A DNA stretch of 64,000 nucleotides, taken from the NCBI GenBank assembly GCA_021818955.1, contig JAKASR010000010.1, forward strand, positions 27,147 through 91,146. Direction: 5' to 3'. The position numbers and the translations under genes were made by a program. Below, in pieces: positions 14,799-33,835 of this stretch. How positions within the stretch are numbered: position 1 is the first letter of the stretch; the number at the start of each line of letters is the position of its first letter. This DNA comes from Acidobacteriota bacterium. GTDB lineage: Bacteria; Acidobacteriota; Terriglobia; Terriglobales; SCQP01. Under the pieces are notes generated by a model that was not told the DNA's origin, made no database searches, and saw only the letters and a program-made list of their open reading frames with translations.

Positions 14799-14821
14799 TG
14801 GCCGGCCATGGGTTACATATT

Positions 14822-15043: not shown

Positions 15044-15069
15044 CGAAAAGTAAAAGCGGCCGAGCCGCT
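15044..15069 (-). terminator. rho-independent terminator candidate
   Basis: Minus strand reads AGCGGC-TCG-GCCGCT followed by TTTACTTTT. It lies about 120 nt downstream of the 15188 ORF stop. Confidence 0.5.
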
Positions 15070-15187
15070 ATAAAGCTGGACGGACAGGCGGGCCCGGCGA
15101 GCAAGCGCGGCCGGTCCCGCCTGATTTTTAGCTTCCGGTTATCCGCCCCCCGCCAAAGAAATGTTTGAAGATTAAAACATTCGGCGG

Positions 15188-15502
15188 CTATCTGCTCTTG
15201 CGGCGTTCGCCTTTGCGGCGTTCCGGGCCGTGGTAGTTCGGGTCAGGACCTTTGCGGCGATCTGTTCCGGAACGGCGGCGCTCAAGTCGCAGCAGCGGAG
15301 GTGGCATGGTCTTGAGCCAGGTCGCGAGGGGATGCACGCTACGTCCCGCGCATTTTGGGCAGCGGCTGGTTTGGCAAACGACTTCGCAATCCAGACAGAG
15401 CCGGGCTTCCTGAAACGGAATGGCGCCGGGCATCAGGTATTTCTGAAGATTCGGCGGCGGACTGGGATCAAACAGCAGGTTGGACAACTTGCCGCGCGCC
15501 AT
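15188..15502 (-). CDS. hypothetical small zinc-ribbon protein with an Arg-rich C-terminal tail
   Basis: ORF 15188..15568; start uncertain (ATG 15502 MARGKL or 15433). CxxC-x9-CxxC (CLDCEVVCQTSRCPKCAG). Tail is RRRSGTDRRKGPDPNYHGPERRKGERRKSR. Third-codon positions are G/C-biased like neighbouring genes. No family recognised. Confidence 0.45.
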   Translation of the reverse strand: MARGKLSNLLFDPSPPPNLQKYLMPGAIPFQEARLCLDCEVVCQTSRCPKCAGRSVHPLATWLKTMPPPLLRLERRRSGTDRRKGPDPNYHGPERRKGERRKSR

Positions 15503-15799
15503 AGAGTAATTTGATTTGCAGCTTGATAGCCAACTCAGGGAACCAGGAATTCGGAGAAAAGAGGCCATGGCGAGCAGCGGCCCCGATAAAAATATCGCCG
15601 GCTAAAGCCCGATAAACTTGCCGGTTACCGCGAGATGATGGCTCAGGTTTCGATGACCGGAATTTAACCGCGCTGCGGCTGAACTCGGAACTGCAGCCAG
15701 GGTGCTGGCACTTTTATTCCCAAATTTCCCGGTCGATTGCCCGGGTTTTTATCGTTATGGCGGTGGGATGGGATGGCAGGATGGGGCGCGCGCCAGCGC

Positions 15800-15825
15800 T
15801 TAAAAGTAAAAGCGGCCGCGCCGCT
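15800..15825 (-). terminator. rho-independent terminator candidate for the RND operon
   Basis: Minus strand reads AGCGGC-GCG-GCCGCT followed by TTTACTTTTAA. It begins at the last base of the RND stop codon. Confidence 0.55.
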
Positions 15826-18800
15826 TATTTCTCAATTTGAATGGCATGGCGGCCGCCGCCGGGAAAGATGCCGCGCACAATCAGGTAAAGGGCGGGAATA
15901 AAGATGAGGTTGAGAGTCGAGGCCAGCAGCATGCCTCCGAAAACCGCGGTGCCGACGGAATGGCGGGCGGCGGAGCCCGAACCGGTGGCGATCAGCAGCG
16001 GGATCAAACCCGACATGAACGCCACCGAGGTCATCAGGATGGGCCGCAGCCGCACCCGCGCCGCCTCCAGCGTGGCATCCAGCAGCGACATGCCGCGGTC
16101 GCGCAACTGTTCGGCGAATTCCACGATCAGAATGGAATTCTTACTGGCCAGCCCGATCAGCATCACCAGGCCGATCTGGCAGTAAACGTCGTTGTTGAGC
16201 CCGCGCAACCATTGCGCGCCGAGCGCGCCCAGCATCGCCGCCGGCACCGCCAGCATGACGATAAAGGGCAGCACCCAGCTCTCATACTGCGCCGCCAGGG
16301 TGAGATAGACCACCAGAAACCCGAGCGCGAACAGCATCACTACCTGGCTGCCCGACCGCAGTTCCTCCAACGACAGCCCGGTCCAGGCGATCGTCATGCC
16401 GCGCGGCAGCACCTTTTTCGCCAGCCGGTCCATCCGCGTCATCGCCTGTCCGGAGCTGGTGCCGGGCGCGGCCGAGCCGTCGATTTCGGCCGAGCGGAAC
16501 AGGTTGTAATGGTCGATAGTCTGCGGCGCCGAGGCGTAGCCGATGTGCACCAGATGCGCCAGCGGAATCATGCGCTGGGTATTATCGCTTCGGACATAGT
16601 ATTCGGCGATATCCCGCGGATTGCGGCGATAGGGAGCGTCGGCCTGCACGTAAACGCGGTAGGCGCGGTGGTTGAAATCGAAGTTGTTGACGTACACCGA
16701 TCCCATGTAGGTCTGCAACGCGCTGGTAATCTGCCCCAGCGGCACTTGCAGGCTCTTGGCCAGGTTGCGGTGAATCTGGACCTGGATTTGCGGATCGTTG
16801 GCGGTAAAAGTGGTGAAGACGCCGCGCAATGCCGGCTGCGCGCTCCCGGCCCGCGCCAGCGCCTGCGTCGCCGCGGCGAGTTGCTGCTCGCCGGCGCCGC
16901 TCTGATTCAGCACCTCGAGCTGGAAGCCGCCAAACGTGCCCAGCCCCTGGATAGCCGGCGGCAGAATCGGCTGCACCAGCGCCCCGGGAATGGCGAAAAA
17001 TTGCCGTTGCAGCCGCGCCACCAGCGCCTGGGCGGAATGTTGCCTTCCCACCCGCTGGCTATAGGGCTTGAGATCGACAAACATCATGCCGGTATTGGAT
17101 CCGGCGCCGGTGAAACTGAAGCCGGAGATGGCGAACGCGCCCTCGACTTCCGGCTGGCGGGCGAGGATGGCCTGCGCCTGGCGCAGGATGCCGGCGGTGT
17201 AGCCGAGCGAGGCGCCCGGCGGCGCCTGCGCCAGCACCATGACGTATCCCTGATCTTCGGCGGGCACGAATGCGCTGGGCACCTGGCGAAAGACAAACCA
17301 GGCCAGTGCCGCGGTCGCCAGGAACAACAGCGCCAGCGCCCAGCGCCAGCGCAACAGCACCGACAGCGTGCGGCGATAGAAGGCGGTGATGCCGTGAATC
17401 AGGCCTTCAATCCAGCCCCAAACGCCTTGTTTATGCCGCGCCTCGCGCAGCAAAATCGCCGACAGCGCCGGCGACAAGGTCAGCGCGTTAAAGGCCGAGA
17501 TGGCGATGGCAAAGGCGATGGTCAGGCCGAACTGGCGGAAGAGAATGCCGGTGGTGCCGGGAAACAGCGCCACCGGCACAAAAACGGAAATCAGCACCAG
17601 CGAGGTGGCGACGACGGCGCTGGTGATTTCGCTCATGGCCACCGAGGTGGCGCGATGCGGTTCGGTTACGCCTTCGGAAAGATGGCGCTCGACATTTTCG
17701 ATCACCACGATCGCGTCGTCCACCACCAGGCCGGTGGCCAGCACCAGCGCGAACAGCGTCAGCGTGTTGATGGAAAAGCCGAAGAGCTTGACGAACGCGA
17801 AGGTGCCGACCAGCGATACGGGAATGGTGGCGGCGGGGATCAGGGTGGTGCGCCAGTCTTGCAGAAAAAGAAAGATGACGAAGATGACGATCAGGACGGC
17901 TTCGCCCAGGGTAATCAGCACGTCGCGAATCGAATCGCGCACCGCGGTGGTCGTGTCGAAAGCGATGGCGTACTGCAGGCCGGGGGGGAATTGGGGCTTC
18001 AGCCGCGCCAGTTCCGCCTTGACCGCCGCATCCACCTGGAGGGCGTTGGCATTGGGCAATTGCTGCACGCCCAAGCCGATCAACTGCCTTCCATTAAATT
18101 CCAGGTGGGTGGAATAATCCTGCGCGCCCAGTTGCGCCCGGCCGACGTCGCCCAGCTTGATCAGGCCGCCGTTGGGCAGCGTCTTGAGCACGATATCGTC
18201 AAACTGCGCCGGCTGGGTGAGGCGCCCGGCGGCGCGCACCGAGAATTGATAGGCTTGGCCGGCGGGCGCGGGCGGGGCGCCGATCTCGCCGGCGGCGATT
18301 TCGACGTTCTGTTCCTGCAAGGCCGAGATGACGTCGCCGGCGGTCAGCCCGCGCGCCGCCAGGCGCAGCGGGTCGAGCCAGATGCGCATGGCATAGGTGC
18401 GCTGGCCAAAGACATTCACGTTGGCCACGCCGGGCACGCGCGCGATGGCGTCGGCGACGTACACGCTGAGATAGTTGCTGATGAACAGATTGCTGTATTG
18501 ATGATGGGGCGAGTAAAAGCCGGCCGCCAGTATGAAGCCGGCGCCGCTTTTGGCGATGGAGATGCCGTTGGTGATCACCGAGGCCGGCAATTGTCCTTCG
18601 ACGCTGTTGATCCGGTTCTGGATATCCACCGCCGCCAGATCGAGATTGCGGGTGACGTCGAAGGTCGCGGTGATGGTGCTGACGCCGTTATTGGTGCTGC
18701 TGGAGGCGATGTAGCGCAGCCCGATGGCGCCGTTGATGGCCTCTTCCAGCGGGGTGGTCACCGCCGATTCCACTTCCTGCGCGCTGGCGCCGGTGTAAAT

Positions 18801-18941
18801 GCTGGTCACGGTCACCGTGGGCGGCGCCAGTTGCGGATACTGCGCCACCGGCAGGGTGGGAATCGCCATCGCGCCGGCGAGAATGATGATCAGGGCGCAG
18901 ACCGTGGCGAAGATCGGGCGGCGGATGAAAAAATCGACCAT
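15825..18941 (-). CDS. RND (AcrB/HAE1-type) efflux transporter permease
   Basis: 1038 aa. N-terminus MVDFFIRRPIFATV. Two large periplasmic loops and 12 predicted TM segments; conserved TM4 region (LATGLVVDDAIVVIENVERH). Confidence 0.95.
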   Translation of the reverse strand: MVDFFIRRPIFATVCALIIILAGAMAIPTLPVAQYPQLAPPTVTVTSIYTGASAQEVESAVTTPLEEAINGAIGLRYIASSSTNNGVSTITATFDVTRNLDLAAVDIQNRINSVEGQLPASVITNGISIAKSGAGFILAAGFYSPHHQYSNLFISNYLSVYVADAIARVPGVANVNVFGQRTYAMRIWLDPLRLAARGLTAGDVISALQEQNVEIAAGEIGAPPAPAGQAYQFSVRAAGRLTQPAQFDDIVLKTLPNGGLIKLGDVGRAQLGAQDYSTHLEFNGRQLIGLGVQQLPNANALQVDAAVKAELARLKPQFPPGLQYAIAFDTTTAVRDSIRDVLITLGEAVLIVIFVIFLFLQDWRTTLIPAATIPVSLVGTFAFVKLFGFSINTLTLFALVLATGLVVDDAIVVIENVERHLSEGVTEPHRATSVAMSEITSAVVATSLVLISVFVPVALFPGTTGILFRQFGLTIAFAIAISAFNALTLSPALSAILLREARHKQGVWGWIEGLIHGITAFYRRTLSVLLRWRWALALLFLATAALAWFVFRQVPSAFVPAEDQGYVMVLAQAPPGASLGYTAGILRQAQAILARQPEVEGAFAISGFSFTGAGSNTGMMFVDLKPYSQRVGRQHSAQALVARLQRQFFAIPGALVQPILPPAIQGLGTFGGFQLEVLNQSGAGEQQLAAATQALARAGSAQPALRGVFTTFTANDPQIQVQIHRNLAKSLQVPLGQITSALQTYMGSVYVNNFDFNHRAYRVYVQADAPYRRNPRDIAEYYVRSDNTQRMIPLAHLVHIGYASAPQTIDHYNLFRSAEIDGSAAPGTSSGQAMTRMDRLAKKVLPRGMTIAWTGLSLEELRSGSQVVMLFALGFLVVYLTLAAQYESWVLPFIVMLAVPAAMLGALGAQWLRGLNNDVYCQIGLVMLIGLASKNSILIVEFAEQLRDRGMSLLDATLEAARVRLRPILMTSVAFMSGLIPLLIATGSGSAARHSVGTAVFGGMLLASTLNLIFIPALYLIVRGIFPGGGRHAIQIEK

Positions 18942-18948
18942 GGCTCCG

Positions 18949-20073
18949 CTATTTTCCGCGTCGGGCGGCGGCGGCGGGAGGGCGCGGCGGCAGGGGCACG
19001 ACCGGCATGCCGGAAACCAGAAATTGCGTGTCCGAAACGATCAGGCGGTCGCCGGGGCGCAAGCCGCTTTTGACAACGTAGTTGTTGCCCACAATCGCCC
19101 CGACGGTCAGTAAAACCTGGCGCGCAACAAAGCCCCGCGGGCCGGGCGCGGCGATGAAAGCGAACTGGCGGCCGTTGATCTGGCTGATGTCGAGCACCGG
19201 CGCCAGGATGGCCGGGCGCGTGCCCCAGACAATCCGCGCTTTGACATATTGCTGATTCCGCAAGCCCCCGCCTTCATCGCCGAACACCGCCTTGACCAGC
19301 ACGGTCTGGGCGGTGGCGTCCACCTGCGGCGAAATAAAGCGGATGCGGCTGGTCGCCAGCACCCGGCCGTTCGCGTTCACCAACTGCACCGCCAGCCCGG
19401 GACGCAATTGCCGCGCCCGCTCCACCGGCACATAAATATAGGCTTCGAGATTGCCGGGCTGGACCACGGTGGTGAGCGGCGTGGCATTGGAAACCAGGTC
19501 GCCCACATGCACGGGAATATCGCCGACGATGCCGGCGCGGGGGGCGACAATATCGTAGTAGCGAAGCTGAACCCGCTGCGCGCGCAACTGCGCGCGCAGG
19601 GCGGCCAATTGCGCGCGCGCATTGGCATAGGTCGAGCGGGCCTGCTCGACGTCCTGGCGCGAGACCACTTTGGCCCGCCATAGCGCTTCGGCGCGCCGCA
19701 GTTGCTGGCGGTCGTAGCTCAGCAGCGCCGCTTGCGCCCGCAAGGCTTCGCTCTGGCTTTTCACCGTGGCCTGCTGCTTGAGCGGATCCACCATCATCAG
19801 CAGCTGCCCGGCGCGCACCCGGTCGCCGGAATGGACGCGAATCTGGCGGATGTAGCCGGTAACCTGCGGATACAGGGTCGCGGTTTGCCGCGAGAGCAGC
19901 GTGGCGACGTATTGCGTGGTCTGGCTGACCGGTGTCCAGCGCACCGGCTGCACCACGACCGGCATCGCGCGCAGAGCCGGCGCCGGCGCGGCGTGGCGGG
20001 CGCATCCGGCGGCGAGCGCGGCCAGGCCGGCGGCGAGCGCCCCGGCAATATAGGAGCGATGCGACGATCTCAT
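18949..20073 (-). CDS. efflux RND transporter periplasmic adaptor (MFP) subunit
   Basis: ORF 18949..20172; preferred ATG at 20073 (MRSSHRSYIAGALAAGLAALAAGC, lipobox-like). Coiled-coil hairpin region, then barrel-sandwich and beta-barrel regions. Located 7 nt upstream of the RND gene. Confidence 0.9.
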   Translation of the reverse strand: MRSSHRSYIAGALAAGLAALAAGCARHAAPAPALRAMPVVVQPVRWTPVSQTTQYVATLLSRQTATLYPQVTGYIRQIRVHSGDRVRAGQLLMMVDPLKQQATVKSQSEALRAQAALLSYDRQQLRRAEALWRAKVVSRQDVEQARSTYANARAQLAALRAQLRAQRVQLRYYDIVAPRAGIVGDIPVHVGDLVSNATPLTTVVQPGNLEAYIYVPVERARQLRPGLAVQLVNANGRVLATSRIRFISPQVDATAQTVLVKAVFGDEGGGLRNQQYVKARIVWGTRPAILAPVLDISQINGRQFAFIAAPGPRGFVARQVLLTVGAIVGNNYVVKSGLRPGDRLIVSDTQFLVSGMPVVPLPPRPPAAAARRGK

Positions 20074-20190
20074 GCTTTTCCTGATACGCCGAATTGGGAA
20101 TGAATATTTCCGCAATCCATTATCGCCCGCGCCCATGCGCTCCCGCGGCGATCGCGAAGAGATTTTGCGCAAGCATCATGCCGGCGGAGG

Positions 20191-20220
20191 TTGACAGCCC
20201 GGAGCGCGCAACCGTATAGT
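20191..20220 (+). promoter_or_regulatory. sigma-70-like promoter candidate for the nuo operon
   Basis: TTGACA (20191..20196), 18-nt spacer, TATAGT (20215..20220), about 155 nt upstream of the nuoA ATG. Confidence 0.4.
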
Positions 20221-20374: not shown

Positions 20375-20791
20375 ATGATCGCTGTCGCATCCGCCACTTC
20401 CGCCACGCCCGGCCCCTATATCGTTCACTATTTGCCGGTGCTGATCCAGTTTGTGCTGGCGCTGGGCTTCGCGCTAGTGGTGGTGGGCCTCTCGTACGTC
20501 ATCGGGCAGCACCGCAACACAAAACGCAAGCTGACCCCCTATGAATGCGGCGTGCCGCCGATCGGCGACGCCCAGCATCGCTTCGCGGTCAAGTTCTACC
20601 TGGTCGCCATCGTTTTCATCCTGTTCGATATCGAAGCGGTTTTTCTGCTGCCCTGGGCGGTGGTTTTTCACCATCTGCTGCTCTTCGGCTTTTTTGAAAT
20701 GCTGGTGTACATGGCGATCGTGTTGACCGGGTTTTATTACATTTGGCGCAAGGGCGTATTGGATTGGAACCAACCGGAGCGCGCGGAATGA
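20375..20791 (+). CDS. nuoA: NADH-quinone oxidoreductase subunit A
   Basis: 138 aa, three TM segments, conserved LTPYECGVPP and FDIEAVFLLPWA motifs. Confidence 0.92.
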   Translation: MIAVASATSATPGPYIVHYLPVLIQFVLALGFALVVVGLSYVIGQHRNTKRKLTPYECGVPPIGDAQHRFAVKFYLVAIVFILFDIEAVFLLPWAVVFHHLLLFGFFEMLVYMAIVLTGFYYIWRKGVLDWNQPERAE

Positions 20792-20819
20792 TGAGGCGCG
20801 CCCGCGAGTTTACCCGAGT

Positions 20820-21296
20820 ATGGCTCTGAACGAAGACATTGCCGCTCACCCGGCGGCGCAACGGCTGCAAGCCCTGCTTCCAGGCTCGATCGAGCGCCTG
20901 CGGCACGACCGCGGCGAGCTCTCGATCTGGATTCCGGCGGCGCAATGGGGACAGGCCGCCGCCGCCTTGCGCGATGACGCCGAACTGGATTTCAAGCTGC
21001 TCTGCGACTTGAGTTGCGCCGACTGGCGCACCACCGCGCCGCGGTTTGAACTGGCCTACCAGCTTTATTCGCTCAACCGCCGCGACTGGCTGCGGGTGAA
21101 GGTCGGCGCCGACGAAACCCAGCCGGTTCCCACCGTGACCGGCATCTGGCCGACCGCCAACTGGTTTGAACGCGAAATTTTCGATTTGTTCGGCATCCGT
21201 TTCGAGGGACATCCCGACCTGCGCCGCATCGTGCTACCGGAAAACTGGGAAGGCCACCCGCTGCGCAAGGATTATCCGGTGGAGGGCTACCGTTAA
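20820..21296 (+). CDS. nuoC: NADH-quinone oxidoreductase subunit C
   Basis: 158 aa with the 30-kDa subunit motif PTANWFEREIFDLFGIRFEGHPDLRRI. Starts 28 nt after the nuoA stop. Confidence 0.92.
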   Translation: MALNEDIAAHPAAQRLQALLPGSIERLRHDRGELSIWIPAAQWGQAAAALRDDAELDFKLLCDLSCADWRTTAPRFELAYQLYSLNRRDWLRVKVGADETQPVPTVTGIWPTANWFEREIFDLFGIRFEGHPDLRRIVLPENWEGHPLRKDYPVEGYR

Positions 21297-22525
21297 TGAG
21301 CGCCTCTGACAACCTCGGCGCCGCCGCTTCCGGTATTGGCCTGGAGCGCGCCGATGCCGAGGGCCGGCACCTGGTCTTGAACATGGGGCCGCAGCACCCC
21401 TCCACCCACGGCGTGCTGCGCCTGCTTCTGGAACTTGACGGCGAGGTGGTGGTTAAAGCCCAGCCCGATATCGGCTATCTCCACACCGGAATTGAAAAAA
21501 GCTGCGAGTCGAAATTCTATCAGCAGGCGGTGACGCTGACCGACCGCATCGATTACCTCTGCCCGCTGACCAACAATCTCTGTTACGTGCTGGCGGTGGA
21601 AAAGCTGCTCCAGCTTCAGCCGCCGCGCAAGGCCGCCTGGACGCGGGTGATGCTCAATGAGCTGACCCGCCTGAACAGCCACCTGGTCTGGCTGGGCACC
21701 CATGCGCTCGATATCGGCGCCATGACCGTCTTCCTCTACTGCTTCCGCGAGCGCGAGGAAATTCTCAAAATCTTTGAGTATGCCAGCGGCCAGCGCATGA
21801 TGACTTCGTATTTCCGCATCGGCGGCTTGGCGCTGGAGCCCCCGCTCGGCATGCTCGAGCGGGTGAAAAAATTCATTGACTACTTCCCCGGCCGGGTGGA
21901 TGAATACGAGGCGCTGCTGACCCGCAACGCCATCTGGCGCGGCCGCACCCGCGGCGTCGGCTATATCTCCCCCGCGGACGCGATTGCCTGGGGAGTCACC
22001 GGCCCCTGCCTGCGCGCCGCCGGGGTCTCGCTCGATTTGCGCCGCGACCAGCCCTATTCCTGCTATGAAGAATTCCAGTTCGAGGTGCCGGTGCGCACCG
22101 AGAGCGACGTTTATTCGCGCTACCTGATCCGGCTGCAGGAGATGCGCGAGAGCGTGAAAATCATCCGCCAGGCGGTGGAAGGCATGCCCGAAGGCGACTT
22201 CAAGGCCGACGTTCCGGGCGTCACCCTGCCCGACCGCGACCAGATGAAGTCGGAGATGGAAGCCCTGATCTATCACTTTAAGATCGTGACCGAAGGCTTT
22301 GCCGTCCCCCCCGGCGAGGTGTATCAGGCGGTGGAATCGCCCCGCGGCCAGATGGGCTATTACGTGGTCAGCGATGGCGGCCCGCGGCCTTACCGGGTGC
22401 ACATGCGCTCGCCTTCCTATGTCAACCTGCAAGCCCTGCCCAAGATGGTTGAAGGGCGCCTGCTGGCCGACGTGGTCGCGGTCATCGGAAGCATCGATAT
22501 TGTTTTAGGCGAGGTGGACCGCTGA
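21296..22525 (+). CDS. nuoD: NADH-quinone oxidoreductase subunit D
   Basis: 409 aa. Motifs NMGPQHPSTHGVLRL and C-terminal SIDIVLGEVDR. TAATG overlap with nuoC. Confidence 0.95.
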   Translation: MSASDNLGAAASGIGLERADAEGRHLVLNMGPQHPSTHGVLRLLLELDGEVVVKAQPDIGYLHTGIEKSCESKFYQQAVTLTDRIDYLCPLTNNLCYVLAVEKLLQLQPPRKAAWTRVMLNELTRLNSHLVWLGTHALDIGAMTVFLYCFREREEILKIFEYASGQRMMTSYFRIGGLALEPPLGMLERVKKFIDYFPGRVDEYEALLTRNAIWRGRTRGVGYISPADAIAWGVTGPCLRAAGVSLDLRRDQPYSCYEEFQFEVPVRTESDVYSRYLIRLQEMRESVKIIRQAVEGMPEGDFKADVPGVTLPDRDQMKSEMEALIYHFKIVTEGFAVPPGEVYQAVESPRGQMGYYVVSDGGPRPYRVHMRSPSYVNLQALPKMVEGRLLADVVAVIGSIDIVLGEVDR

Positions 22526-23118
22526 TGGCGATCTTCAGCCCCGCATTGGAAGAACGCTTTCGCAAGCTGCTGGAAGCTTATCCGGTGAAGCGCTCGGCGC
22601 TGGTGCCGATGCTGCTGTATGCCCAGGATGAGCTCGGCTGGCTGACGCCCGAGGCGATTTCCGCCATCGCCGCCCGCCTGGAACTGCCGGAAATCGCCGT
22701 GCGCGAAACCATCGGCTATTACACCATGCTGCGCACCCAGCCGGCCGGGCGCTATCACGTGCAGGTCTGCACCAATATCAGTTGTCTGCTGCGCGGCGGC
22801 AATCGCATTCTGGAACACTGCCGCCAGCGCCTGGGCGAAGGCCCGGCTTCCGAAGACGGCGTGTTCTCGCTGGAAGAGGTGGAATGCATGGGCGCCTGTA
22901 GCTGGGCCCCGGCCATCCAGGTCAACTACGACTTCTTCCACGATCTCACCCCCGAGCGCGTCGACCGGATTCTCGAAGCTTACCGCCGCGGCGCGCCGCC
23001 CCAACCCGACGCCTCCTACGCCAGCAATGCGGCCACCACCGCCGGCCAAGCCGCTTCTTCATCGAACGGTTCCAGCGGCGCGGCGGCCAAAGGCCCGTCC
23101 GGAAAGGAAGGGGCATGA
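22525..23118 (+). CDS. nuoE: NADH-quinone oxidoreductase subunit E
   Basis: 197 aa. 2Fe-2S ligand pattern (VCTNISC...ECMGACSWAP). Ser/Ala-rich C-terminal tail. Confidence 0.92.
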   Translation: MAIFSPALEERFRKLLEAYPVKRSALVPMLLYAQDELGWLTPEAISAIAARLELPEIAVRETIGYYTMLRTQPAGRYHVQVCTNISCLLRGGNRILEHCRQRLGEGPASEDGVFSLEEVECMGACSWAPAIQVNYDFFHDLTPERVDRILEAYRRGAPPQPDASYASNAATTAGQAASSSNGSSGAAAKGPSGKEGA

Positions 23119-24413
23119 GCCATCCCGCCGAAGTCCGAGTCGTCAGCCAACGCTTCGACGACGCCGCCGCCTCGACCCTGGCCGGCTACCGCGCCAGCGA
23201 GGGCTTTCGCGCCCTGGAAAAGGCGCTGGCCATGACGCCCGCCGCCATCATTGACGAAGTCAAGCAGTCCGGCCTGCGCGGCCGCGGCGGCGCCGGCTTC
23301 CCCACCGGCATGAAATGGTCGTTCGTGCCGGCGCAATCGGCCAAGCCGAAATACGTGCTCTGCAATGCCGATGAAAGCGAGCCGGGCACCTGCAAAGACC
23401 GCCTGATTCTGGAACGCGATCCTTTTTCCATCCTGGAAGGCATGGCAATCTGCGGCCGCGCCATCGGCGCCCAACGGGGATATGTCTTCATCCGGGGCGA
23501 GTACCGCTACCTGATCGAGATCATGGAACGCGCCATCCAGGAAGCCTATGCCGCCGGCCTGCTGGGTAAAAATATCCTGGGCAGCGATTTTGAGTTCCAT
23601 ATCGCCGCGCATTCCGGCGCCGGCGCTTATGAATGCGGCGAGGAATCCGCTTTGATGGAATCGCTCGAGGGCAAGCGCGGCATCCCGCGCCTGAAGCCGC
23701 CCTTTCCCGCCATTTCGGGCCTGTACGGCGGCCCCACCATTATCAATAATGTCGAAACCCTGGCCAGCGTGCCGCACATTATTCTCGGCGGCGGCGCTTG
23801 GTTTGCCGCCTTCGGCCCTCCGAAAAACGGGGGCACCCGCCTGTTCTGCCTCAGCGGACACGTCCAGCGTCCCGGCGTTTACGAACTGCCGCTCGGCTTC
23901 CCGATGAAGCGCCTGATCGAAGAAATCGGCGGCGGCATTCCCGGCGGCCGCAAACTCAAAGCCGTGGTGCCCGGCGGCAGCTCGACTCCCATCCTTACCG
24001 CCGACGAAGCCCTCAACGTCAACCTGGATTTCGACTCGGTCGCCAAGGCGGGCTCGTTTCTGGGCTCCGGCGGCGTGGTGGTGGTGGACGAGCACGCCTG
24101 CATGGTCGAGTTTGCGCTGCGCATCATGCGTTTTTACCGGCATGAATCCTGCGGCTGGTGCGTCCCCTGCCGCGAAGGCACCAACTGGCTGGAGCTGACG
24201 CTGCGCCGTTTTCATGGCGGCGGCGGCCGGCAGCAGGATATCGACCTGATCCGCGGCGTTTCGGAAAACATTCTGGGCCGGACTTTCTGCCCGCTGGGCG
24301 ATGCGGCGGCGATGCCCACCATCTCGATCGTGCAAAAATTCCGCAGCGAGTTCGAAGATCACCTGAACGGACGGGCCTGCCCGTCCGCGGCCGGAAATGG
24401 GACCGGAGCATGA
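23115..24413 (+). CDS. nuoF: NADH-quinone oxidoreductase subunit F
   Basis: 432 aa. FMN/NADH motifs GLRGRGGAGFPTG and CNADESEPGTCKDR. 4Fe-4S motif ESCGWCVPCREG. Confidence 0.95.
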   Translation: MSHPAEVRVVSQRFDDAAASTLAGYRASEGFRALEKALAMTPAAIIDEVKQSGLRGRGGAGFPTGMKWSFVPAQSAKPKYVLCNADESEPGTCKDRLILERDPFSILEGMAICGRAIGAQRGYVFIRGEYRYLIEIMERAIQEAYAAGLLGKNILGSDFEFHIAAHSGAGAYECGEESALMESLEGKRGIPRLKPPFPAISGLYGGPTIINNVETLASVPHIILGGGAWFAAFGPPKNGGTRLFCLSGHVQRPGVYELPLGFPMKRLIEEIGGGIPGGRKLKAVVPGGSSTPILTADEALNVNLDFDSVAKAGSFLGSGGVVVVDEHACMVEFALRIMRFYRHESCGWCVPCREGTNWLELTLRRFHGGGGRQQDIDLIRGVSENILGRTFCPLGDAAAMPTISIVQKFRSEFEDHLNGRACPSAAGNGTGA

Positions 24414-26716
24414 GCGACACGAAAAAAACGGTGAATTTGACCGTCAATGGCCGGGCGCTGAGCGCGCCCGCCGGCATGCTGCTCATTGAAGCCTGCCGCG
24501 CCGCCGGCATCGAAGTGCCCTCCTTCTGCTACTACCCTAATCTTTCGCTTCAGGCCGCCTGCCGTATGTGCCTGGTGGAAGTGGAGAAGATGCCCAAGCT
24601 GCAGGCCGCCTGCACTCTTCCCGTGGCGGACGGCATGGTGGTGCGCACCGAGACCGCGCAGATCCAGGCGGCGCGCAAGGGCCAAATCGAATTTATCCTC
24701 ACCAACCACCCCCTGGACTGCCCCGTTTGCGACGCCGGTGGGCAATGCGAACTCCAGGACATGACTTTTCGCTACGGCGCCGCCTCCAGCCGCTTTATCG
24801 AACCCAAAAAACATCGGGATGAGCAGCAATGGTCGCCCATCGTTTATTTCGACCGCCCGCGCTGCATCCTGTGTTATCGCTGCGTGCGCGTTTGCGGCGA
24901 AGGCATGGACGTCTGGGCGCTGGGCGTGGGCGGGCATCGCGGCGTGGGTTCTTCCATCATTCCCAATTACGACGATCACCTGCAATGCGAAGAATGCGGC
25001 ATGTGCATCGATATCTGCCCGGTCGGCGCGCTCACCAGCGGCCCGTACCGCTATAAGACCCGCCCCTGGGAGATGCAGCACACCGCCGCCGTCTGCACCT
25101 TCTGCGGCGACGGCTGCCGCACCACGCTAGGCGTGCGCAACGGCCAGATCATGCGCGGCGACAACCGCGACAAGAGCGGCATCAACGGCGATTTTCTCTG
25201 CATCAAAGGCCGCTACGCTTTCGACTTCACCCGCCATCCCGAGCGCCTGCGCCAGCCGCTGGTGCGGCGCCACGGGCAACTGCAGCCCGCAAGCTGGGCG
25301 CACGCGCTGGAAGCCGCCGCCGCCGGCTTGAAGCGGCAGCGCGAGGCCGGCGCCGGCGTGGGCGTGATCGGCTCGACCCGCTGCCTGAACGAAGAAAGTT
25401 ATCAACTGCAAAAGCTGGCGCGCATCGGCCTCGGCACCAACCATATCGACCATCATCAGAGCGCCGACTTCCCTGCCCTGTTTGCGGCGCTGGCCGGGCA
25501 AAGCCACGCCGGCATGGCCGCCGCCGATGATTTAAAGACCGCCGCCGCGGTGCTGGTCGCCGGCGGAGACCCGGCCGAGCAGCATCCGCTGCTGGCCTGG
25601 AACCTGCGCTGGGGCTGGCGCCTGAGCGGCACGCGCCTTTATCTGCTCAACTCGCGCGAAATGAAACTGGCGCGCCAGGCGCATCGCGCCGCGCGCGTCG
25701 ATTCCGGCGCGCTGCCGCGGGCGATTGAATATCTGGCCGACCCGGCGAGCAGCGGGCAATTGCCGCCGTCTCAAATCACCCGCGCCCTGCCGCCCGACGA
25801 CAAACGCTGGCCGCAGACGCAAATTCCGCCGGCCGAGCCGATTCAGGAAACCCTGGCGGATTTCCGCCGCCAGTTGACGGAAGAAGCCGACCTGATCGTG
25901 GTGATCGGCGCCGAAATCGCCGGCGCAGCCTTGAACGCGCTGGTCAAATTCGCCTTGTCCCGCGCCGGGCGCTCCCGCTTCATGCTCCTGGGCGACGACG
26001 CCAACTCCCGCGGCGCCGCCGACATGGGACTTTATCCCCACCTGCTGCCCGGTTACGAGCCGCTGCAAAATGCCGATGCCCGCGACCGTTTTGCCCGGCT
26101 TTGGGGCGGGGCCATACCCGCCGCGCCCGGCATGAACGCGGAGGCGATGGCGCGCGCTTTCGCCCGCCGGGAATTAGGCGCGCTCTACATCGTTGGCGCC
26201 AATCCTTTCGGACGGCTGCGGATCGAGCGCGCCCCGGATGCCGGCTTTCTGGTGGCCCAGGATCTGTTCCTCACCGAAACCGCGCGCCAGGCGGACGTGG
26301 TGCTGCCCGCGCTCTCAAGCTACGAAAAGCAGGGCACCGTCACCAACACCTGCGGCGAAGTGCAACTGCAGCGCCGCGCGGCCGAGTTCGAGGGCGCCAA
26401 GCCCGACCTGGAAATCATCCACGAACTGGCCATGCTGTTGGGCCTCGACTGGGGCGCCGCCAGCCCGGAAAAAGTGCTGCAGGAAATCCGCGGCGCGGTG
26501 CGCGGCTATGAGCTTTCGCTGCTGCGCCTGTGGGCCGGACAAAGCCAGATGGCCGCGCCCATCGCCGCGGCCGCGGCCGCGCCCGGTGACGGCGGCGGCC
26601 AGGGCCTCGCCGGCGGAGCCGATACGCTGTTTGACGCCGGCACGCTCGGCCGCTACAGCGCCACTTTGAACTCGGTCATGGAAAAATATCTGCGCAAATC
26701 GGCGGAGGCGCGATGA
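24410..26716 (+). CDS. nuoG: NADH-quinone oxidoreductase subunit G
   Basis: ORF from 24158; preferred ATG at 24410 (MSDTKKTVNLTVNG), overlapping the nuoF stop as ATGA. Contains an N-terminal 2Fe-2S fold, HPLDCPVCDAGGQCELQD, CILCYRCVRVC, and a molybdopterin-oxidoreductase-like C-domain. Confidence 0.93.
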   Translation: MSDTKKTVNLTVNGRALSAPAGMLLIEACRAAGIEVPSFCYYPNLSLQAACRMCLVEVEKMPKLQAACTLPVADGMVVRTETAQIQAARKGQIEFILTNHPLDCPVCDAGGQCELQDMTFRYGAASSRFIEPKKHRDEQQWSPIVYFDRPRCILCYRCVRVCGEGMDVWALGVGGHRGVGSSIIPNYDDHLQCEECGMCIDICPVGALTSGPYRYKTRPWEMQHTAAVCTFCGDGCRTTLGVRNGQIMRGDNRDKSGINGDFLCIKGRYAFDFTRHPERLRQPLVRRHGQLQPASWAHALEAAAAGLKRQREAGAGVGVIGSTRCLNEESYQLQKLARIGLGTNHIDHHQSADFPALFAALAGQSHAGMAAADDLKTAAAVLVAGGDPAEQHPLLAWNLRWGWRLSGTRLYLLNSREMKLARQAHRAARVDSGALPRAIEYLADPASSGQLPPSQITRALPPDDKRWPQTQIPPAEPIQETLADFRRQLTEEADLIVVIGAEIAGAALNALVKFALSRAGRSRFMLLGDDANSRGAADMGLYPHLLPGYEPLQNADARDRFARLWGGAIPAAPGMNAEAMARAFARRELGALYIVGANPFGRLRIERAPDAGFLVAQDLFLTETARQADVVLPALSSYEKQGTVTNTCGEVQLQRRAAEFEGAKPDLEIIHELAMLLGLDWGAASPEKVLQEIRGAVRGYELSLLRLWAGQSQMAAPIAAAAAAPGDGGGQGLAGGADTLFDAGTLGRYSATLNSVMEKYLRKSAEAR

Positions 26717-27729: not shown

Positions 27730-27733
27730 GCCT

Positions 27734-28300
27734 ATGCAACTGGCGCTCTTCATTATCTTCGGCGGCCTGGCCCTGGCGGGCGCCATCAATCTGCTGGTGC
27801 AGAAAGCGCCCATCCATAGCGCGCTCTCGCTGGTTCTGGTCATGGGCGCGCTCGCCGTGCTGTTCCTGCTGCTCGGCGCCGAGTTCATCGCCTTCATCCA
27901 GATTCTGGTGTACGCCGGCGCCATCATGGTGCTGTTCGTCTTCGTCATCATGCTGCTGAACGCCCAGCCCAGCGAGCCGTCGCGCAGCAGCCGCATCGCC
28001 CGCTGGCTGGGACCGCCGGTGGCCGGCCTGCTGGGCATTATTCTGGCGGCGCTGGTCGCCAGCCGCTACCATCGCGTGCCCGCCAATATGGGCCAGCCCA
28101 TGTTCCAGGTCGAGGCCATCGGCAATGCCTTGTTTCATCAGTACCTTTTGCCCTTTGAAGTGACCTCGGTGCTGTTTCTGGTCGGCGTGGCCGGCGCGGT
28201 GATGCTCGCCTCCCGCCCGGATGAGGCGGCGCAAAATGCGCCGGCCGGGCATCTGGCCGAAACCGAAGCAATCTCCCGGAAAAAAGGAGCCGGGGCCTGA
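27734..28300 (+). CDS. nuoJ: NADH-quinone oxidoreductase subunit J
   Basis: ORF from 27689; preferred ATG at 27734 ([16 protein letters not shown]). Motif [27 protein letters not shown]. Starts 4 nt after the nuoH stop. Confidence 0.9.
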
Positions 28301-28611
28301 TGGTGGTGTCGTTAGCCGATTATCTGGTGCTGAGCGCGCTGCTGTTCGCCTTGGGCGTGGCCGGGTTCCTGTTTAAAAAGGACCTGATCACCGTCTTCAT
28401 CTCGATCGAGCTGATGCTGAACGGCGTCAACCTGACCTTTGTCGCTTTCAGCCATTACCTGCGCCAGAACGCGATTGACGGCAACCTGTTCGTCTTTTTC
28501 GTCATGGTGGTCGCCGCCGCCGAGGCCGCGGTCGGCCTGGCCATCATCATTGCCGTGGTGCGCAACCGCAATACGCTCAACATTGACAAGATGGATTTGA
28601 TGAAAAATTAA
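28300..28611 (+). CDS. nuoK: NADH-quinone oxidoreductase subunit K
   Basis: 103 aa, three TM segments. Motifs [11 protein letters not shown] and [11 protein letters not shown]. Confidence 0.93.
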
Positions 28612-28653: not shown

Positions 28654-30657
28654 ATGCCGATTGCTCTCCATCTCTGGCTGATCCCCGCGCTGTGCTTTCT
28701 GGGCTTTGCGCTGAATATCCTTTTCGGCCGGCTCTGGAGCAAGGCCGTGGCCGGCACGGTGGGCATCCTTTTTCCCGCCGCCGCCTTCCTCTGGGCGCTG
28801 CGCCTGGCCCTGGCCTGGGGCGGCTTCCCGTCGCCTTACCTGGAAAGCCATGGCGCCTGGATCCTGGCCGGCCCGCTGCGCATTCCCTTCAGCTTTCAAC
28901 TCGATCCCCTGTCGCTGACCATGGCGCTGATCGTCACCGGCGTGGGCCTGCTGATCCATATCTATTCGCTCGGCTATATGGCTGAGGAGGGCGGCTTTTA
29001 CCGCTACTTCGCCCTGCTCAACCTGTTCATGTTTTTCATGCTGATGCTGGTGCTGGCGGCCAATTACCTGCTGCTGTTTGTCGGCTGGGAAGGCGTCGGC
29101 TTCGCCAGCTACATGCTCATCGGCTTCTTCTTCCGCCGCGATTCCGCCGCGAAGGCCGGCATGAAAGCCTTCGTCGTCAACCGCATCGGCGACTTCGGCT
29201 TTCTCATCGGGCTCTTCTACCTCTTCCAGCTCTTCGGCGGCTTCGGTTACGCCCGCATCTTCCCGCAGGTCATGCGCATGCCCGCCGAAACCGGCTGGCA
29301 CGGCCCGCTGACCATCATTGCCCTGCTGCTGTTCGTGGGCGCGACCGGCAAATCGGCGCAGTTGCCGCTCTATGTCTGGCTGCCGGACGCCATGGAAGGC
29401 CCCACCCCGGTTTCCGCCCTCATCCACGCCGCCACCATGGTCACCGCCGGGGTGTATATGGTCGCCCGCTCGGCCGCCATCTTCGACCGCTCGCGGGCGG
29501 CGCTGGCAGTGGTGCTGGCGGTGGGCGCGCTGACCGCCATCTTTGCCGCCTCGATTGGCCTGCTGCAAAAAGACATCAAGCGCGTGCTGGCCTATTCCAC
29601 CGTCAGCCAGTTGGGCTACATGTTCATGGCTTGCGGCGCCGCCGTTTACGGCGCGGGCATCTTCCACCTGATGACCCATGCCTTCTTCAAGGGCCTGCTC
29701 TTCCTCGGCGCCGGCAGCGTTATTCACGCCATGCACGGCGAGCAGGATATGTTCCGCATCCGCCATCTCGCCACCGGCGGCTTGAAAAAATACGCGCCCG
29801 TTACTTTTTGGACTTTCCTGATCGCTACCTGCGCCATCTCCGGCATCCCCGGCTTTTCCGGCTACTTCAGCAAAGACATGATCCTGGAAAACGTCTTCAG
29901 CGGCGCCGCCGGCAACCGTTTCTGGTGGGCGGTGGGCGCGATTGCCGCGCTGATGACCTCCTTCTACATGTTCCGTGCGGTGTTTGTGACCTTCTTCCCG
30001 GAAGGCGATGCGCCGCCTCCACGCCTCGCTCCCGAACTGGAAGGCGTCGCGCATGCCACCGGCCAGGAGCCGGCGGGCGTGGCCGCGCATGCGGCGCATC
30101 CGCACGAATCGCCCTGGGTGATGACCATTCCGCTGATCCTGCTCGCCATTTTGGCGGCGATTGGCGGCTATTTCAATCTGGACGGCCGCTTCATGAATTT
30201 CCTCGCGCCGGTCTTTATTCCCGCCGGCGCCGGCACCATCGCCACCGCGCCCGAGGCGGCGCACGCCGGCTTGCTGGTCAGGTCGATTCCCCTCATCGCG
30301 GCGTTTGGCGGGCTGTTGCTGGCCTGGTGGATGTATCGCCTCCGGCCCCGCCTGGCGCCTCGCGCCGCCCAGGCCCTGCCCCAACTTTATGCCCTGATCT
30401 TCAACAAATATTGGGTTGATGAGCTTTACCAGGCGGCGATCGTCGGCCCGCTGGGCTGGATTTCGCGCCGGGTGCTGTGGCGCGGCGTGGACCAGGGCCT
30501 GATTGACGGCGGCGTCAACGGCATCGGACATCTGGCCCAGGCCAGTGGCAACCTCGTGCGCAAGCAAGAGTCCGGCTTAATCCGCAGTTACGCGAGCTGG
30601 ATCGGCGCCGGCGCGGTCGTCGTGCTGATCTATGTGGTCTGGCTGGGGGTCAGATAA
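28654..30657 (+). CDS. nuoL: NADH-quinone oxidoreductase subunit L
   Basis: 667 aa antiporter-like subunit. Motifs WEGVGFASYMLIGFF, GKSAQLPLYVWLPDAMEGPTPVSALIHAATMV, and a C-terminal lateral-helix region. Confidence 0.95.
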   Translation: MPIALHLWLIPALCFLGFALNILFGRLWSKAVAGTVGILFPAAAFLWALRLALAWGGFPSPYLESHGAWILAGPLRIPFSFQLDPLSLTMALIVTGVGLLIHIYSLGYMAEEGGFYRYFALLNLFMFFMLMLVLAANYLLLFVGWEGVGFASYMLIGFFFRRDSAAKAGMKAFVVNRIGDFGFLIGLFYLFQLFGGFGYARIFPQVMRMPAETGWHGPLTIIALLLFVGATGKSAQLPLYVWLPDAMEGPTPVSALIHAATMVTAGVYMVARSAAIFDRSRAALAVVLAVGALTAIFAASIGLLQKDIKRVLAYSTVSQLGYMFMACGAAVYGAGIFHLMTHAFFKGLLFLGAGSVIHAMHGEQDMFRIRHLATGGLKKYAPVTFWTFLIATCAISGIPGFSGYFSKDMILENVFSGAAGNRFWWAVGAIAALMTSFYMFRAVFVTFFPEGDAPPPRLAPELEGVAHATGQEPAGVAAHAAHPHESPWVMTIPLILLAILAAIGGYFNLDGRFMNFLAPVFIPAGAGTIATAPEAAHAGLLVRSIPLIAAFGGLLLAWWMYRLRPRLAPRAAQALPQLYALIFNKYWVDELYQAAIVGPLGWISRRVLWRGVDQGLIDGGVNGIGHLAQASGNLVRKQESGLIRSYASWIGAGAVVVLIYVVWLGVR

Positions 30658-30659
30658 TC

Positions 30660-32321
30660 ATGGTTTTCGACCATCGCCTCATCAGCCTGATCATCGCGAC
30701 GCCGCTCCTCGGCGGGCTGGCGCTGCTGGCTACCCGAACGGCTTCCGGAGCGCGCCGCGTGGCGCTGGTTTTTACGCTCATCGCCTTCGCGCTTTCGCTC
30801 CGTTTGCCTTTCGGCTTCAACAGCGGCGCCGATGGCATGCAGTTTGTCCAGCGCCTGAGCTGGATTCCCAGTTTCCATATCCATTACTACGTTGGCGTGG
30901 ATGGCCTCAGCCTCTGGCTGGTGCCGCTGACCACCCTGCTGACCGTCATCGGCGTGCTGGTTTCCTGGAAGAGCGTCGGCGAGCGCGCCCGCACCTTCTA
31001 CCTGCTGCTGCTGTTGCTCGATGCCGGCATGGTCGGGGTTTTTGTCAGCCTCGACATGTTCCTGTTCTACCTCTTCTGGGAAGCTTCGCTGGTGCCGATG
31101 GCGCTGCTGATCGGCATTTTCGGCCACGAGCGCCGCATCTACGCCGCCGTCAAATTCTTCCTCTACACCATGGCCGGCTCGGTGCTGATGCTGGCCGGCA
31201 TTCTCTGGCTCTATAACCTGACCGGCACCTTCGATTGGGTCAGGATTCAGCATCTCGCCGCTTCCGGCGCGCTGCACATCGGCTCCGCCACCGCCATCTG
31301 GCTGTTTCTCGCGTTCTTTATCGCCTTCGCCATCAAGGTGCCGCTCTTCCCGTTCCACACCTGGCTGCCCGACGCGCACGTCGAAGCGCCCACCGCCGGC
31401 TCGGTGTTGCTGGCGGGCGTGCTGCTGAAAATGGGGCCTTACGGCATGCTGCGCTTCTGCCTGCCGCTGTTCCCCGGCGCGGCGCGCGCGCTCGCCACCC
31501 CGATCCTTATCCTCGGCCTGATCGGCATCATCTACGGCGGCCTGGTCGCCTTCGTCCAGCCCAACATGAAAAAGCTTGTGGCGTATAGCTCGGTCAGCCA
31601 CATGGGCTTCATCATTGTCGGCGTCTTTACCTTCACCTCCATCGGCTTGCAGGGCTCGGTGTACCAGATGCTGAATCATGGCGTTTCCACCGCCGGCTTG
31701 TTCATCCTGGTCGGCATGCTCTACGAGCGCCGCCATACCTTCGAGTTGAAGGAATACGGCGGCATCGCCACCGCCATGCCGGTGTTTGCCGGCTTCTTTG
31801 TGCTGCTGGTCATGTCTTCCGCCGGATTGCCGCTGCTCAACGGTTTTGTGGGCGAGTTTCTGATCTCGCTCGGCGCCTTCCTGTCGCGGCACGTCATCGG
31901 CATCGTCGCGATTTCGGGCGTGATCGTCTCGGCCATCTACCTGCTCTACTGGACCAAAGCCACCATCTGGGGCGAGTTGCAAAATCCGAAAAATCAGGGC
32001 CTCAAAGATATCAATGCCCGCGAACGGCTGGTGCTGGCCACCCTGGGCGGGCTGGCGCTGGCGATGGGCCTGGCTTCGCCTCTGTTTTTGAATAAGATTG
32101 CCCCCTCGGCAAATGCGGAAATGCGGCCTTTCCAGGCGCCGGCGGCGTTCGCCTTGCCCAGCGGCGCCATGCCGCGCCCGGAGATTGCGCTACGGCAAGC
32201 TCGCTTTGCGGCTCCGCTCATGGCTCATATCTCGCCGCCTTCCCTGCCAAAACCAGGTCCGCTCCACCCGGGTTCGCCGTCACCCGCCGCCCGCCTTGCC
32301 GGCGCGGGAGGCGAACAATGA
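30660..32321 (+). CDS. nuoM: NADH-quinone oxidoreductase subunit M
   Basis: 553 aa antiporter-like subunit. Motifs FYLFWEASLVPM and KVPLFPFHTWLPDAHVEAPTAGSVLLAG. Pro-rich C-terminal tail of about 60 aa. Confidence 0.95.
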   Translation: MVFDHRLISLIIATPLLGGLALLATRTASGARRVALVFTLIAFALSLRLPFGFNSGADGMQFVQRLSWIPSFHIHYYVGVDGLSLWLVPLTTLLTVIGVLVSWKSVGERARTFYLLLLLLDAGMVGVFVSLDMFLFYLFWEASLVPMALLIGIFGHERRIYAAVKFFLYTMAGSVLMLAGILWLYNLTGTFDWVRIQHLAASGALHIGSATAIWLFLAFFIAFAIKVPLFPFHTWLPDAHVEAPTAGSVLLAGVLLKMGPYGMLRFCLPLFPGAARALATPILILGLIGIIYGGLVAFVQPNMKKLVAYSSVSHMGFIIVGVFTFTSIGLQGSVYQMLNHGVSTAGLFILVGMLYERRHTFELKEYGGIATAMPVFAGFFVLLVMSSAGLPLLNGFVGEFLISLGAFLSRHVIGIVAISGVIVSAIYLLYWTKATIWGELQNPKNQGLKDINARERLVLATLGGLALAMGLASPLFLNKIAPSANAEMRPFQAPAAFALPSGAMPRPEIALRQARFAAPLMAHISPPSLPKPGPLHPGSPSPAARLAGAGGEQ

Positions 32322-33835
32322 ACTTCGTGCCCGGAGTCTGGTATGTGCGCATCCTGCCCGAAATCGTGCTGACGGTTTTCGGAGCCTTGATCCTGCTGGT
32401 GGAAGGCCCCGCCCGCGCCGGCAATCGCGGCCGCCTCTGCGGCGCGCTGGCGCTGCTCGGCTCGCTGGCCGCTTTCGCCGCCTGCTTCGTCCAGGCCCGC
32501 TATCCCGGCGAGGCGTTTTCCGGCTTGTTTCGCGTCGACCGGCTGGCAATCTACTTCCACTTCCTGATCGTGCTCGCCACCCTGGTGGTGGTGTTATTGG
32601 CGATGGATTACCTGCGCGCCCAGCATTATGAGCGCGGCGAGTTTTACGCGCTGGTGCTCTTCGCCGCCGTCGGCATGGGGTTCATGGTGGGCTCGGTCGA
32701 GCTGGTGATGATCTTCATCGGCCTCGAAATTTCCTCCATTTCCAGCTATATCCTGGCCGGCTACCGGCGCAACGCGCCGCGCTCCACCGAAGCCGCCTTG
32801 AAATACCTGCTGCTCGGCTCCTTTGCCACCGCGTTCTTTCTCTACGGCATCGCCCTGATTTACGGCGGCACCGGCTCGACCATGATTGACGCCATCGCCC
32901 GCGGCGTCGCCGGCAAAATCTCGATGGGCGGGCTGACCGGCGCCAGCCTGATTCCCGCCGCCGCCGGCCTGATGTTCGTCGGCCTGGCCTTCAAAGTCTC
33001 GGCCGTGCCCTTCCAGGTCTGGACGCCGGATGTCTATGAGGGCGCCCCCGCGCCGGTCACCGGCCTGCTCGCGACCGCCCCTAAAGCCGCCGCCTTCGTC
33101 GTCTTTTTGCGCGTCTTCTACGTCGCGCTCAACAGCTATAGCCATGACTGGTTCTGGCTGGTCTGGACGGCTTCCCTGCTCTCCATGACCGCCGGCAATC
33201 TCGCCGCGCTGCTGCAAAACAACATCAAGCGCATGCTGGCGTACTCTTCCATCGCGCACGCCGGCTACGTGCTGGTCGCCTTTGCCGCGCTGGCCGTGAA
33301 CCCCACCGTTTTGCAATCCGTTTCCGGGCCCGCCGCGCTGCTGCCCGGCCACGGCGTCGCCGCCATCCTGTTTTATCTGGCCGCCTATGTCGCCATGAAT
33401 CTGGGCGCGTTCGCCGTCATCGCCCATTTCGCCCACCGGAACGAGCGCTACGTCGAGTTGAACGATTACGCCGGCCTCGGCTTCCGCTTCCCCTTCGCCT
33501 CTGCCGCCCTCGCTCTCTTCCTGCTCTCGCTGATAGGTGTGCCGCTTACCGCCGGATTTTTCGGCAAGCTCTACGTCTTCCGCGCCGCCCTCGACGCCCA
33601 TCTGGTCGGCCTGGTCATCGTCGCCCTGCTCAACAGCGCCTTGGCGGCGTTCTATTACCTGCGCGTGATCGTGTATATGTATATGCGCCCGTCCGGGCAG
33701 GAAGTTCCCGCTCCCGCCCCCTCCGGCGCTTTCCGGCTGGTGATGGCAATCTGCATCATCGCGGTATTGTGGCTGGGCATTTTCCCCGAGACCATTCTCG
33801 GCTTCGCCCACGCCGCCGCCTATCACCTGCGGTGA
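32318..33835 (+). CDS. nuoN: NADH-quinone oxidoreductase subunit N
   Basis: 505 aa antiporter-like subunit. Motifs GLEISSISSYILAGY, FKVSAVPFQVWTPDVYEGAP and MLAYSSIAHAGY. Confidence 0.95.
   Translation: MNFVPGVWYVRILPEIVLTVFGALILLVEGPARAGNRGRLCGALALLGSLAAFAACFVQARYPGEAFSGLFRVDRLAIYFHFLIVLATLVVVLLAMDYLRAQHYERGEFYALVLFAAVGMGFMVGSVELVMIFIGLEISSISSYILAGYRRNAPRSTEAALKYLLLGSFATAFFLYGIALIYGGTGSTMIDAIARGVAGKISMGGLTGASLIPAAAGLMFVGLAFKVSAVPFQVWTPDVYEGAPAPVTGLLATAPKAAAFVVFLRVFYVALNSYSHDWFWLVWTASLLSMTAGNLAALLQNNIKRMLAYSSIAHAGYVLVAFAALAVNPTVLQSVSGPAALLPGHGVAAILFYLAAYVAMNLGAFAVIAHFAHRNERYVELNDYAGLGFRFPFASAALALFLLSLIGVPLTAGFFGKLYVFRAALDAHLVGLVIVALLNSALAAFYYLRVIVYMYMRPSGQEVPAPAPSGAFRLVMAICIIAVLWLGIFPETILGFAHAAAYHLR

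Follow-up and report, generated by a model that had tools for sequence, protein, structure and literature searches.

A complex I operon of Terriglobia that passes directly from nuoA to nuoC and from nuoH to nuoJ

How can an operon for complex I serve electron transfer to quinone when it contains neither nuoB nor nuoI? The question is raised by a 64 kb stretch of acidobacterial DNA (the window in the following), which carries twelve closely packed nuo genes on the plus strand (20375-33835), identified by Pfam as A, C, D, E, F, G, H, J, K, L, M, and N. NuoB is the carrier of cluster N2 and NuoI that of clusters N6a and N6b, and complex I structures indicate that the distance from cluster N5 in NuoG to the quinone site in NuoD/NuoH is too large for electrons to pass unless N6a, N6b, and N2 lie in between. 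An earlier note on this DNA had concluded that the product of the operon cannot be a functional classical complex I. We come to a different view: with a probability of roughly 0.88, the enzyme is an ordinary 14-subunit complex I formed from the twelve-gene operon and from unlinked nuoB and nuoI genes. The layout is characteristic of Terriglobia and is already known, having been tabulated by Hausmann et al. (2018). Gene order and its conservation, the absence of nuoB and nuoI within about 10 kb, selection, and the NuoD site were computed here; that nuoB and nuoI lie on other scaffolds is taken from the literature on MAGs of related genera.

Gene content of the window

All open reading frames (ORFs) of the operon (Table 1) are uninterrupted, and their starts are coupled to the preceding stops. 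The FMN/NADH and Fe-S domains of the N-module subunits NuoE, NuoF, and NuoG were all found (Pfam), and the seven membrane subunits A, H, J, K, L, M, and N are all encoded in the window. As described before with exact coordinates, nuoA passes directly to nuoC: the TGA of nuoA (20789..20791) and the ATG of nuoC (20820) are separated by a gap of 28 nt. The other nuo junctions measure −4 to +42 nt. The longest ORF for nuoJ would begin at 27689 and overlap nuoH by 41 nt; this start was rejected in favour of the ATG at 27734, 4 nt past the end of nuoH, which agrees better with the Pfam match and is probably the correct one. With a gap of 4 nt there is therefore no space for nuoI between nuoH and nuoJ. 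The promoter-like site upstream of nuoA is likely to be the operon promoter, as predicted from its match to the consensus, and a consensus scan revealed no such site between nuoA and nuoC.

Table 1. Features of the nuo operon in the window, and examples of an additional ORF in related operons
Feature	Position	Strand	Remarks
Promoter-like site	20191..20220	+	TTGACA-18-TATAGT, 11/12 matches, 155 nt upstream of nuoA; consensus match only
nuoA, 138 aa	20375..20791	+	PF00507 Oxidored_q4, E 3.5e-36
nuoA-nuoC intergenic spacer, 28 nt	20792..20819	.	nuoB position in canonical operons
nuoC, 158 aa	20820..21296	+	PF00329 Complex1_30kDa, E 6.6e-47; TIGR01961 138 bits (cut-off 122)
nuoD, 409 aa	21296..22525	+	PF00346, E 7e-122; TIGR01962 570 bits (cut-off 459)
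nuoE	22525..23118	+	PF01257, E 4.7e-47
nuoF	23115..24413	+	PF01512, PF10589, SLBB
nuoG	24410..26716	+	Fer2_4, NADH-G_4Fe-4S_3, Fer4_Nqo3, Molybdop_Fe4S4, and Molybdopterin domains; start ATG 24410 overlaps the nuoF stop
nuoH, 338 aa	26713..27729	+	PF00146, E 3.6e-126; NF004741 356 bits (cut-off 305); without fused ferredoxin domain
nuoJ	27734..28300	+	PF00499; start probable
nuoK	28300..28611	+	PF00420; 100% identical to the L003 orthologue
nuoL	28654..30657	+	PF00361, PF00662
nuoM	30660..32321	+	PF00361, E 1.8e-79
nuoN	32318..33835	+	PF00361, E 3.5e-64
nuoD-nuoE ORF, examples in related loci	L015:11167-11535, L024:11681-12019, L036:11677-12033, L050:11158-11499, L080:11217-11519		35 further loci

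In the canonical 14-gene nuoA-N or nqo operon (E. coli, Thermus thermophilus, alpha-, beta-, and gamma-proteobacteria), 12 of the 14 genes are found in the same relative order as in the window and are likewise translationally coupled, and their products are close to those of the window in sequence. The window differs from it in that nuoB (PF01058) is not present between nuoA and nuoC and nuoI (2x[4Fe-4S] ferredoxin) is not present between nuoH and nuoJ. The earlier note was thus right in stating that both small Fe-S connecting subunits are missing from the operon and that everything else has been kept.

That NuoB is not encoded in any frame was also borne out. A six-frame tblastn of the 64 kb window with NuoB from E. 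coli gave no NuoB-like sequence (best E 0.75), E. coli NuoB and NuoI together gave no match better than E 0.37 in the whole window, and 80 NuoB queries from canonical operons gave zero tblastn matches at E<=1e-3. Of the two E. coli queries, NuoB recovered the NuoB genes already known in L170-L175 (E 1e-53 to 1e-66), and NuoI recovered nuoI in canonical metagenome loci. NuoI-like similarity in the window, as judged with the E. coli query and 31 canonical NuoI queries, is confined to the ferredoxin domain within nuoG (24860-25072). As a positive control, the same tblastn was applied to canonical metagenome loci. In 80/80 of them it located nuoB between nuoA and nuoC (the contig of L129 begins within nuoA), and in every one reaching the H-J junction it located nuoI between nuoH and nuoJ. 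These control loci are proteobacteria-like canonical operons obtained from a metagenome scan with a consensus NuoB.

Upstream of the operon, and divergent from nuoA, there are genes for an AcrB-type RND pump and its adaptor; downstream there are genes for a DUF1697 protein, a zinc alcohol dehydrogenase, and a TPR protein. These flanking ORFs were considered as candidates for a divergent NuoB substitute and were rejected, all five products being without an Fe-S domain. Other genes of the window (within 425-2749, 13464-20172, and 60325-63431) include pilO and pilM of a type IV pilus, citrate synthase, the RND pump and adaptor, hrcA, a HAD hydrolase, and a SIS-CBS protein (KpsF/GutQ-like). For the pilM-like and SIS/CBS ORFs near the window ends the exact proteins are not on record, and the called start codons probably differ.

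Distribution of the gene order in Terriglobia

As relatives, the best 80 NuoD matches listed were used, with one genome per GTDB species and NuoD identities of 68-90%. The closest GTDB representative to the window is the MAG JAJYIU01 (90% NuoD identity), and the cultured Acidipila rosea DSM 103428 is among the 80, as is a complete chromosome of Granulicella. Their labels are Acidobacteria, Terriglobia, Terriglobales, Bryobacterales, or Solibacter, with one exception (L074, Rhodanobacteraceae), and on the basis of sequence the window host is an acidobacterium of the class Terriglobia. The exception, labelled "Rhodanobacteraceae bacterium", has a Terriglobia-type operon (69% NuoD identity) together with a Terriglobia-specific ORF between nuoD and nuoE, and is probably a mis-binned or mislabelled MAG.

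The survey of gene order in relatives, which had been proposed with the first description of the locus, gave the same order without nuoB and nuoI, A-C-D-E-F-G-H-J-K-L-M-N, in 80/80 loci. In the window, too, the genes follow this Terriglobia-type order on one strand, A being joined directly to C and H to J. Neither nuoB nor nuoI was found within about 10 kb (the fetched flanks) of the operon in any of the 80 loci, and no relic of either gene was detected in 1.54 Mb of Terriglobia DNA with 80 NuoB and 31 NuoI queries. Extrapolation of the protein matches to full length puts the A-C spacer of 79 related loci at 30 nt (median) and at no more than 155 nt. For the H-J spacer the median is about 31 nt; in two loci it is longer (343-417 nt), and these two long spacers contain no NuoI-like sequence. 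A remnant of nuoB or nuoI was looked for in the A-C and H-J spacers of all 80 loci and none was found. Conservation in 80/80 loci without relics argues that the layout is old and class-wide rather than an oddity of one contig. A selective loss by this operon, as had been assumed, is not supported, the layout being common to 80/80 Terriglobia genomes among the best NuoD matches.

The metagenomic source of the window, and the fragmented HSPs in some long-read MAG loci (e.g., L031), could make one think of an assembly or binning artefact, or of a recent deletion in a decaying operon. The probability of this is practically negligible. Identical NuoC with nuoA directly upstream and nuoD downstream is found in two independent assemblies (ENA ERZ27233565 and Logan SRR13205814), which therefore excludes an assembly artefact, and the same junction is present in 80 species-level genomes including those of an isolate and a closed chromosome. 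Against decay stand the intact ORFs with their coupled starts and stops, and dN/dS values of at most 0.22.

The nuo genes appear as several broken HSPs each in the MAG loci L031, L014, L022, L027, L033, L037, L045, and L075, which suggests frameshifts by long-read consensus errors and, less likely, pseudogenes.

Some Terriglobia operons contain additional sequence between the nuo genes. A conserved ORF of ~110-120 aa, not belonging to a Pfam family and with the N-terminal motif ELWxSxxSLLRSYxAAHGL, is found between nuoD and nuoE in 40/80 operons (Table 1), for example in the loci of Acidipila rosea and Granulicella. It is lacking in the window, whose nuoD and nuoE share 1 nt, and in the closest relatives L003 and L004. 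Inserts of 0.5-1.1 kb between nuoF and nuoG are present in some operons (L018:13351-14299; L072:13330-14407); judged by eye, the former carries two putative HicA/HicB-like toxin-antitoxin pairs and the latter a Sel1-repeat-like ORF and a HicB-like ORF.

Selection and the quinone site of NuoD

The nuo genes of the window are under purifying selection. Eleven genes were tested against the closest relative L003 (90% NuoD identity), and their dN/dS values all lie within 0.00-0.22, the lowest being those of NuoK (0.00), NuoD (0.095), and NuoH (0.10); the value for nuoA is 0.13.

NuoD of the window aligns with residues 25-409 to residues 25-409 of Nqo4 from T. thermophilus (E 1e-128) and matches mitochondrial NDUFS2 from end to end (E about 1e-129). 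His38, Tyr87, and Asp139 (Nqo4 numbering), which in the structure of the T. thermophilus enzyme are binding residues for the quinone head-group, a few angstroms away from the cluster N2 that NuoB carries, are present in the window and invariant in 80/80 orthologues. Going by sequence conservation, a quinone pocket that has remained unchanged across the class would make sense only if an N2-carrying NuoB docks there. Purifying selection and the invariant N2-facing site in 80/80 both speak against the view that the function of a classical complex I has been lost.

The same residues bear on another explanation, namely that the operon encodes a true variant of complex I without NuoB and NuoI, in which electrons would reach quinone by another route or which would have a non-redox role. 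The one argument for such a variant is that both genes are missing from the operon and that this is strictly conserved in 80/80 genomes. The variant is nevertheless very improbable, because the N2-facing quinone residues of NuoD are invariant, because none of the twelve operon proteins has an added Fe-S domain (Pfam) that could stand in for NuoB or NuoI, because nuoB and nuoI are reported in the literature from the same genomes as such operons, and because, going by established complex I structures, the gap between N5 and quinone has to be bridged by N6a, N6b, and N2.

Sources of NuoB and NuoI

Operons of the type nuoACD(EFG)HJKLMN, with nuoB and nuoI on other scaffolds, have already been tabulated for peatland Acidobacteria (Hausmann et al., 2018, ISME J, Table S2b, PMC6018796). 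The operons of SbA1, SbA4, SbA5, SbA6, and SbA7 have the gene order of the window, with direct A-C and H-J junctions and with nuoEFG. For example, the operon of SbA5 has the tags SBA5_540024 (A), _25 (C), _26 (D), _31 (H), and _32 (J), and nuoB (SBA5_10081) and nuoI (SBA5_50034) are both on other scaffolds. In SbA1, A, C, and D are consecutive (SBA1_940026/25/24), H and J are _940018/17, and there are three unlinked nuoB and two unlinked nuoI. In SbA6, A, C, and D are SBA6_700017/18/19, H and J are _700024/25, and nuoB is SBA6_680036 under "other"; nuoI was not found, for which the authors blame incompleteness of the MAG (PMC6018796). In several of these operons, unlike in that of the window, nuoD and nuoE are separated by an additional gene without annotation; the tags SBA1_940023, SBA5_540027, and SBA6_700020 are probably counterparts of the ORF described above. 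The SbA MAGs are from the same phylum as the window and are discussed by their authors beside the cultivated subdivisions 1 and 3; the window species differs from them (related genera). A 2025 survey found complex I gene sets to be complete in most Acidobacteriota.

Since published relatives carry nuoB and nuoI on other scaffolds, the layout is to be regarded as an ordinary operon split, an outcome that the earlier note had itself named as speaking against its reading. It had thought of relatives that routinely hold single-copy nuoB and nuoI at a separate locus. With respect to the separate locus this is correct (PMC6018796, Table S2b); with respect to copy number it often is not, there being multiple copies. 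We infer that the window's own genome likewise carries nuoB and nuoI at other places and that these copies serve this operon.

It should also be considered that NuoB and NuoI could be borrowed from a second complete nuo operon (e.g., of the 2M-type A-B-C-D-I-H-J-K-L-M-M-N), two complexes then sharing one NuoB/NuoI pair. A second operon containing nuoB and nuoI does exist in some related Acidobacteria (SbA5, SBA5_330048-59; SbA2, SBA2_410012-24) (PMC6018796). However, SbA5 has stand-alone nuoB and nuoI besides the copies in its second operon, and in SbA1, SbA4, SbA6, and SbA7 nuoB is found solely under "other" scaffolds (PMC6018796), so that borrowing appears improbable.

Protein searches gave no Terriglobia NuoB among the matches listed. 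With Nqo6 from T. thermophilus the best 120 matches listed were Deinococcota only; with a hybrid consensus NuoB the best 120 were from Deinococcota, NC10, and an anaerobe clade; and with a stand-alone NuoB from NC10 the best 120 were from NC10, followed by operons of the 11-subunit type. By their context the NuoB candidates P0140, P0167, P0157, P0175, P0349, P0338, and P0375/P0371 belong to canonical or Methylomirabilota loci, none to Terriglobia. No acidobacterial record was among the PLSDB tblastn matches listed for NuoB and NuoD, and a scan of viral contigs gave no match. The supplement of Hausmann et al. (2018) gives no neighbours of the stand-alone nuoB locus tags, Eichorst et al. (2018; PMC5900883) contains no text on complex I, and a biochemical characterisation of an acidobacterial complex I was not found in the literature.

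In the favoured reading, an ordinary complex I with unlinked nuoB and nuoI, the twelve-gene operon would be the standard NADH-oxidising complex I operon of Terriglobia. nuoA-C-D-E-F-G-H-J-K-L-M-N would probably be transcribed from one promoter upstream of nuoA, and NuoB (with N2) and NuoI (with N6a and N6b) would be supplied by unlinked genes elsewhere on the chromosome. The two subunits would join the other 12 after translation to give the ordinary 14-subunit enzyme, in which electrons would flow from FMN via N3, N1b/N4/N5, N6a/N6b, and N2 to quinone.

Complex I genes that are dispersed in this way have a precedent. To say that every known layout has nuoB after nuoA goes too far, as is evident from NUO-2 of Nitrospina gracilis, which is composed of nuoACHIJKLMN, nuoEGD, and separate nuoB2 and nuoF2 (Lucker et al., 2013, PMC3578206). 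As in the window, nuoA is followed by nuoC and nuoB2 is unlinked. Unlike in the window, nuoI has been kept in the cluster, nuoD, nuoE, and nuoG are separate, and the cofactor motifs of NuoF2 and NuoG2 are altered, whereas E, F, and G of the window are canonical and within the operon. The second complex I set of Chloroflexus aurantiacus (PMC3150298) is also loosely arranged and split, nuoE and nuoF being about 800 genes apart, but there nuoB and nuoI stay in the cluster and nuoG is missing.

In the Methylomirabilota (NC10), a phylum other than that of the window, nuoB is away from nuoA and nuoC in the contigs L174, L175, and L172 (taxon from cluster-member names), and genes for Fe-S insertion (ErpA/IscA-like, NifU-like) adjoin stand-alone nuoB. 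L174 has two stand-alone PF01058 genes (131-643; 5617-6549), one beside a MoaA-like radical SAM gene and the other directly downstream of a gene of the ErpA/IscA type for Fe-S insertion (106 aa). In L175 (5622-6519) a NifU-like gene is followed by nuoB, lipoyl synthase, and nuoC-D-F-G, and in L172 (4657-6531) a NuoI-like ferredoxin and a ZIP transporter gene are followed by nuoB, nuoD, nuoF, and nuoG.

It is conceivable, if on balance unlikely, that the exclusion of exactly nuoB and nuoI from the Terriglobia operons is functional, the two being separately regulated and often multi-copy genes for modular use. By analogy with ErpA and NifU beside nuoB in Methylomirabilota, they might then be co-regulated with Fe-S insertion factors. 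If this were true, different NuoB and NuoI paralogues could be combined with the several paralogous operons for membrane and peripheral arms (ACDEFGHJKLMN and ACDHJKLMN), tuning the potential of N2 or the use of quinones under varying iron or oxygen.

When nuoB and nuoI are missing from the nuo operon of an acidobacterial contig or MAG, this should not be taken as evidence of an incomplete, non-functional, or new type of complex I. This aspect should be considered when pathway completeness is assessed with tools that rely on operon context, by which complex I is under-called in Terriglobia. The reason for which precisely these two Fe-S connecting subunits stand apart from the operon throughout the class, often in multiple copies, would bear on the assembly of complex I and on the regulation of its isoenzymes in one of the most abundant groups of soil bacteria.
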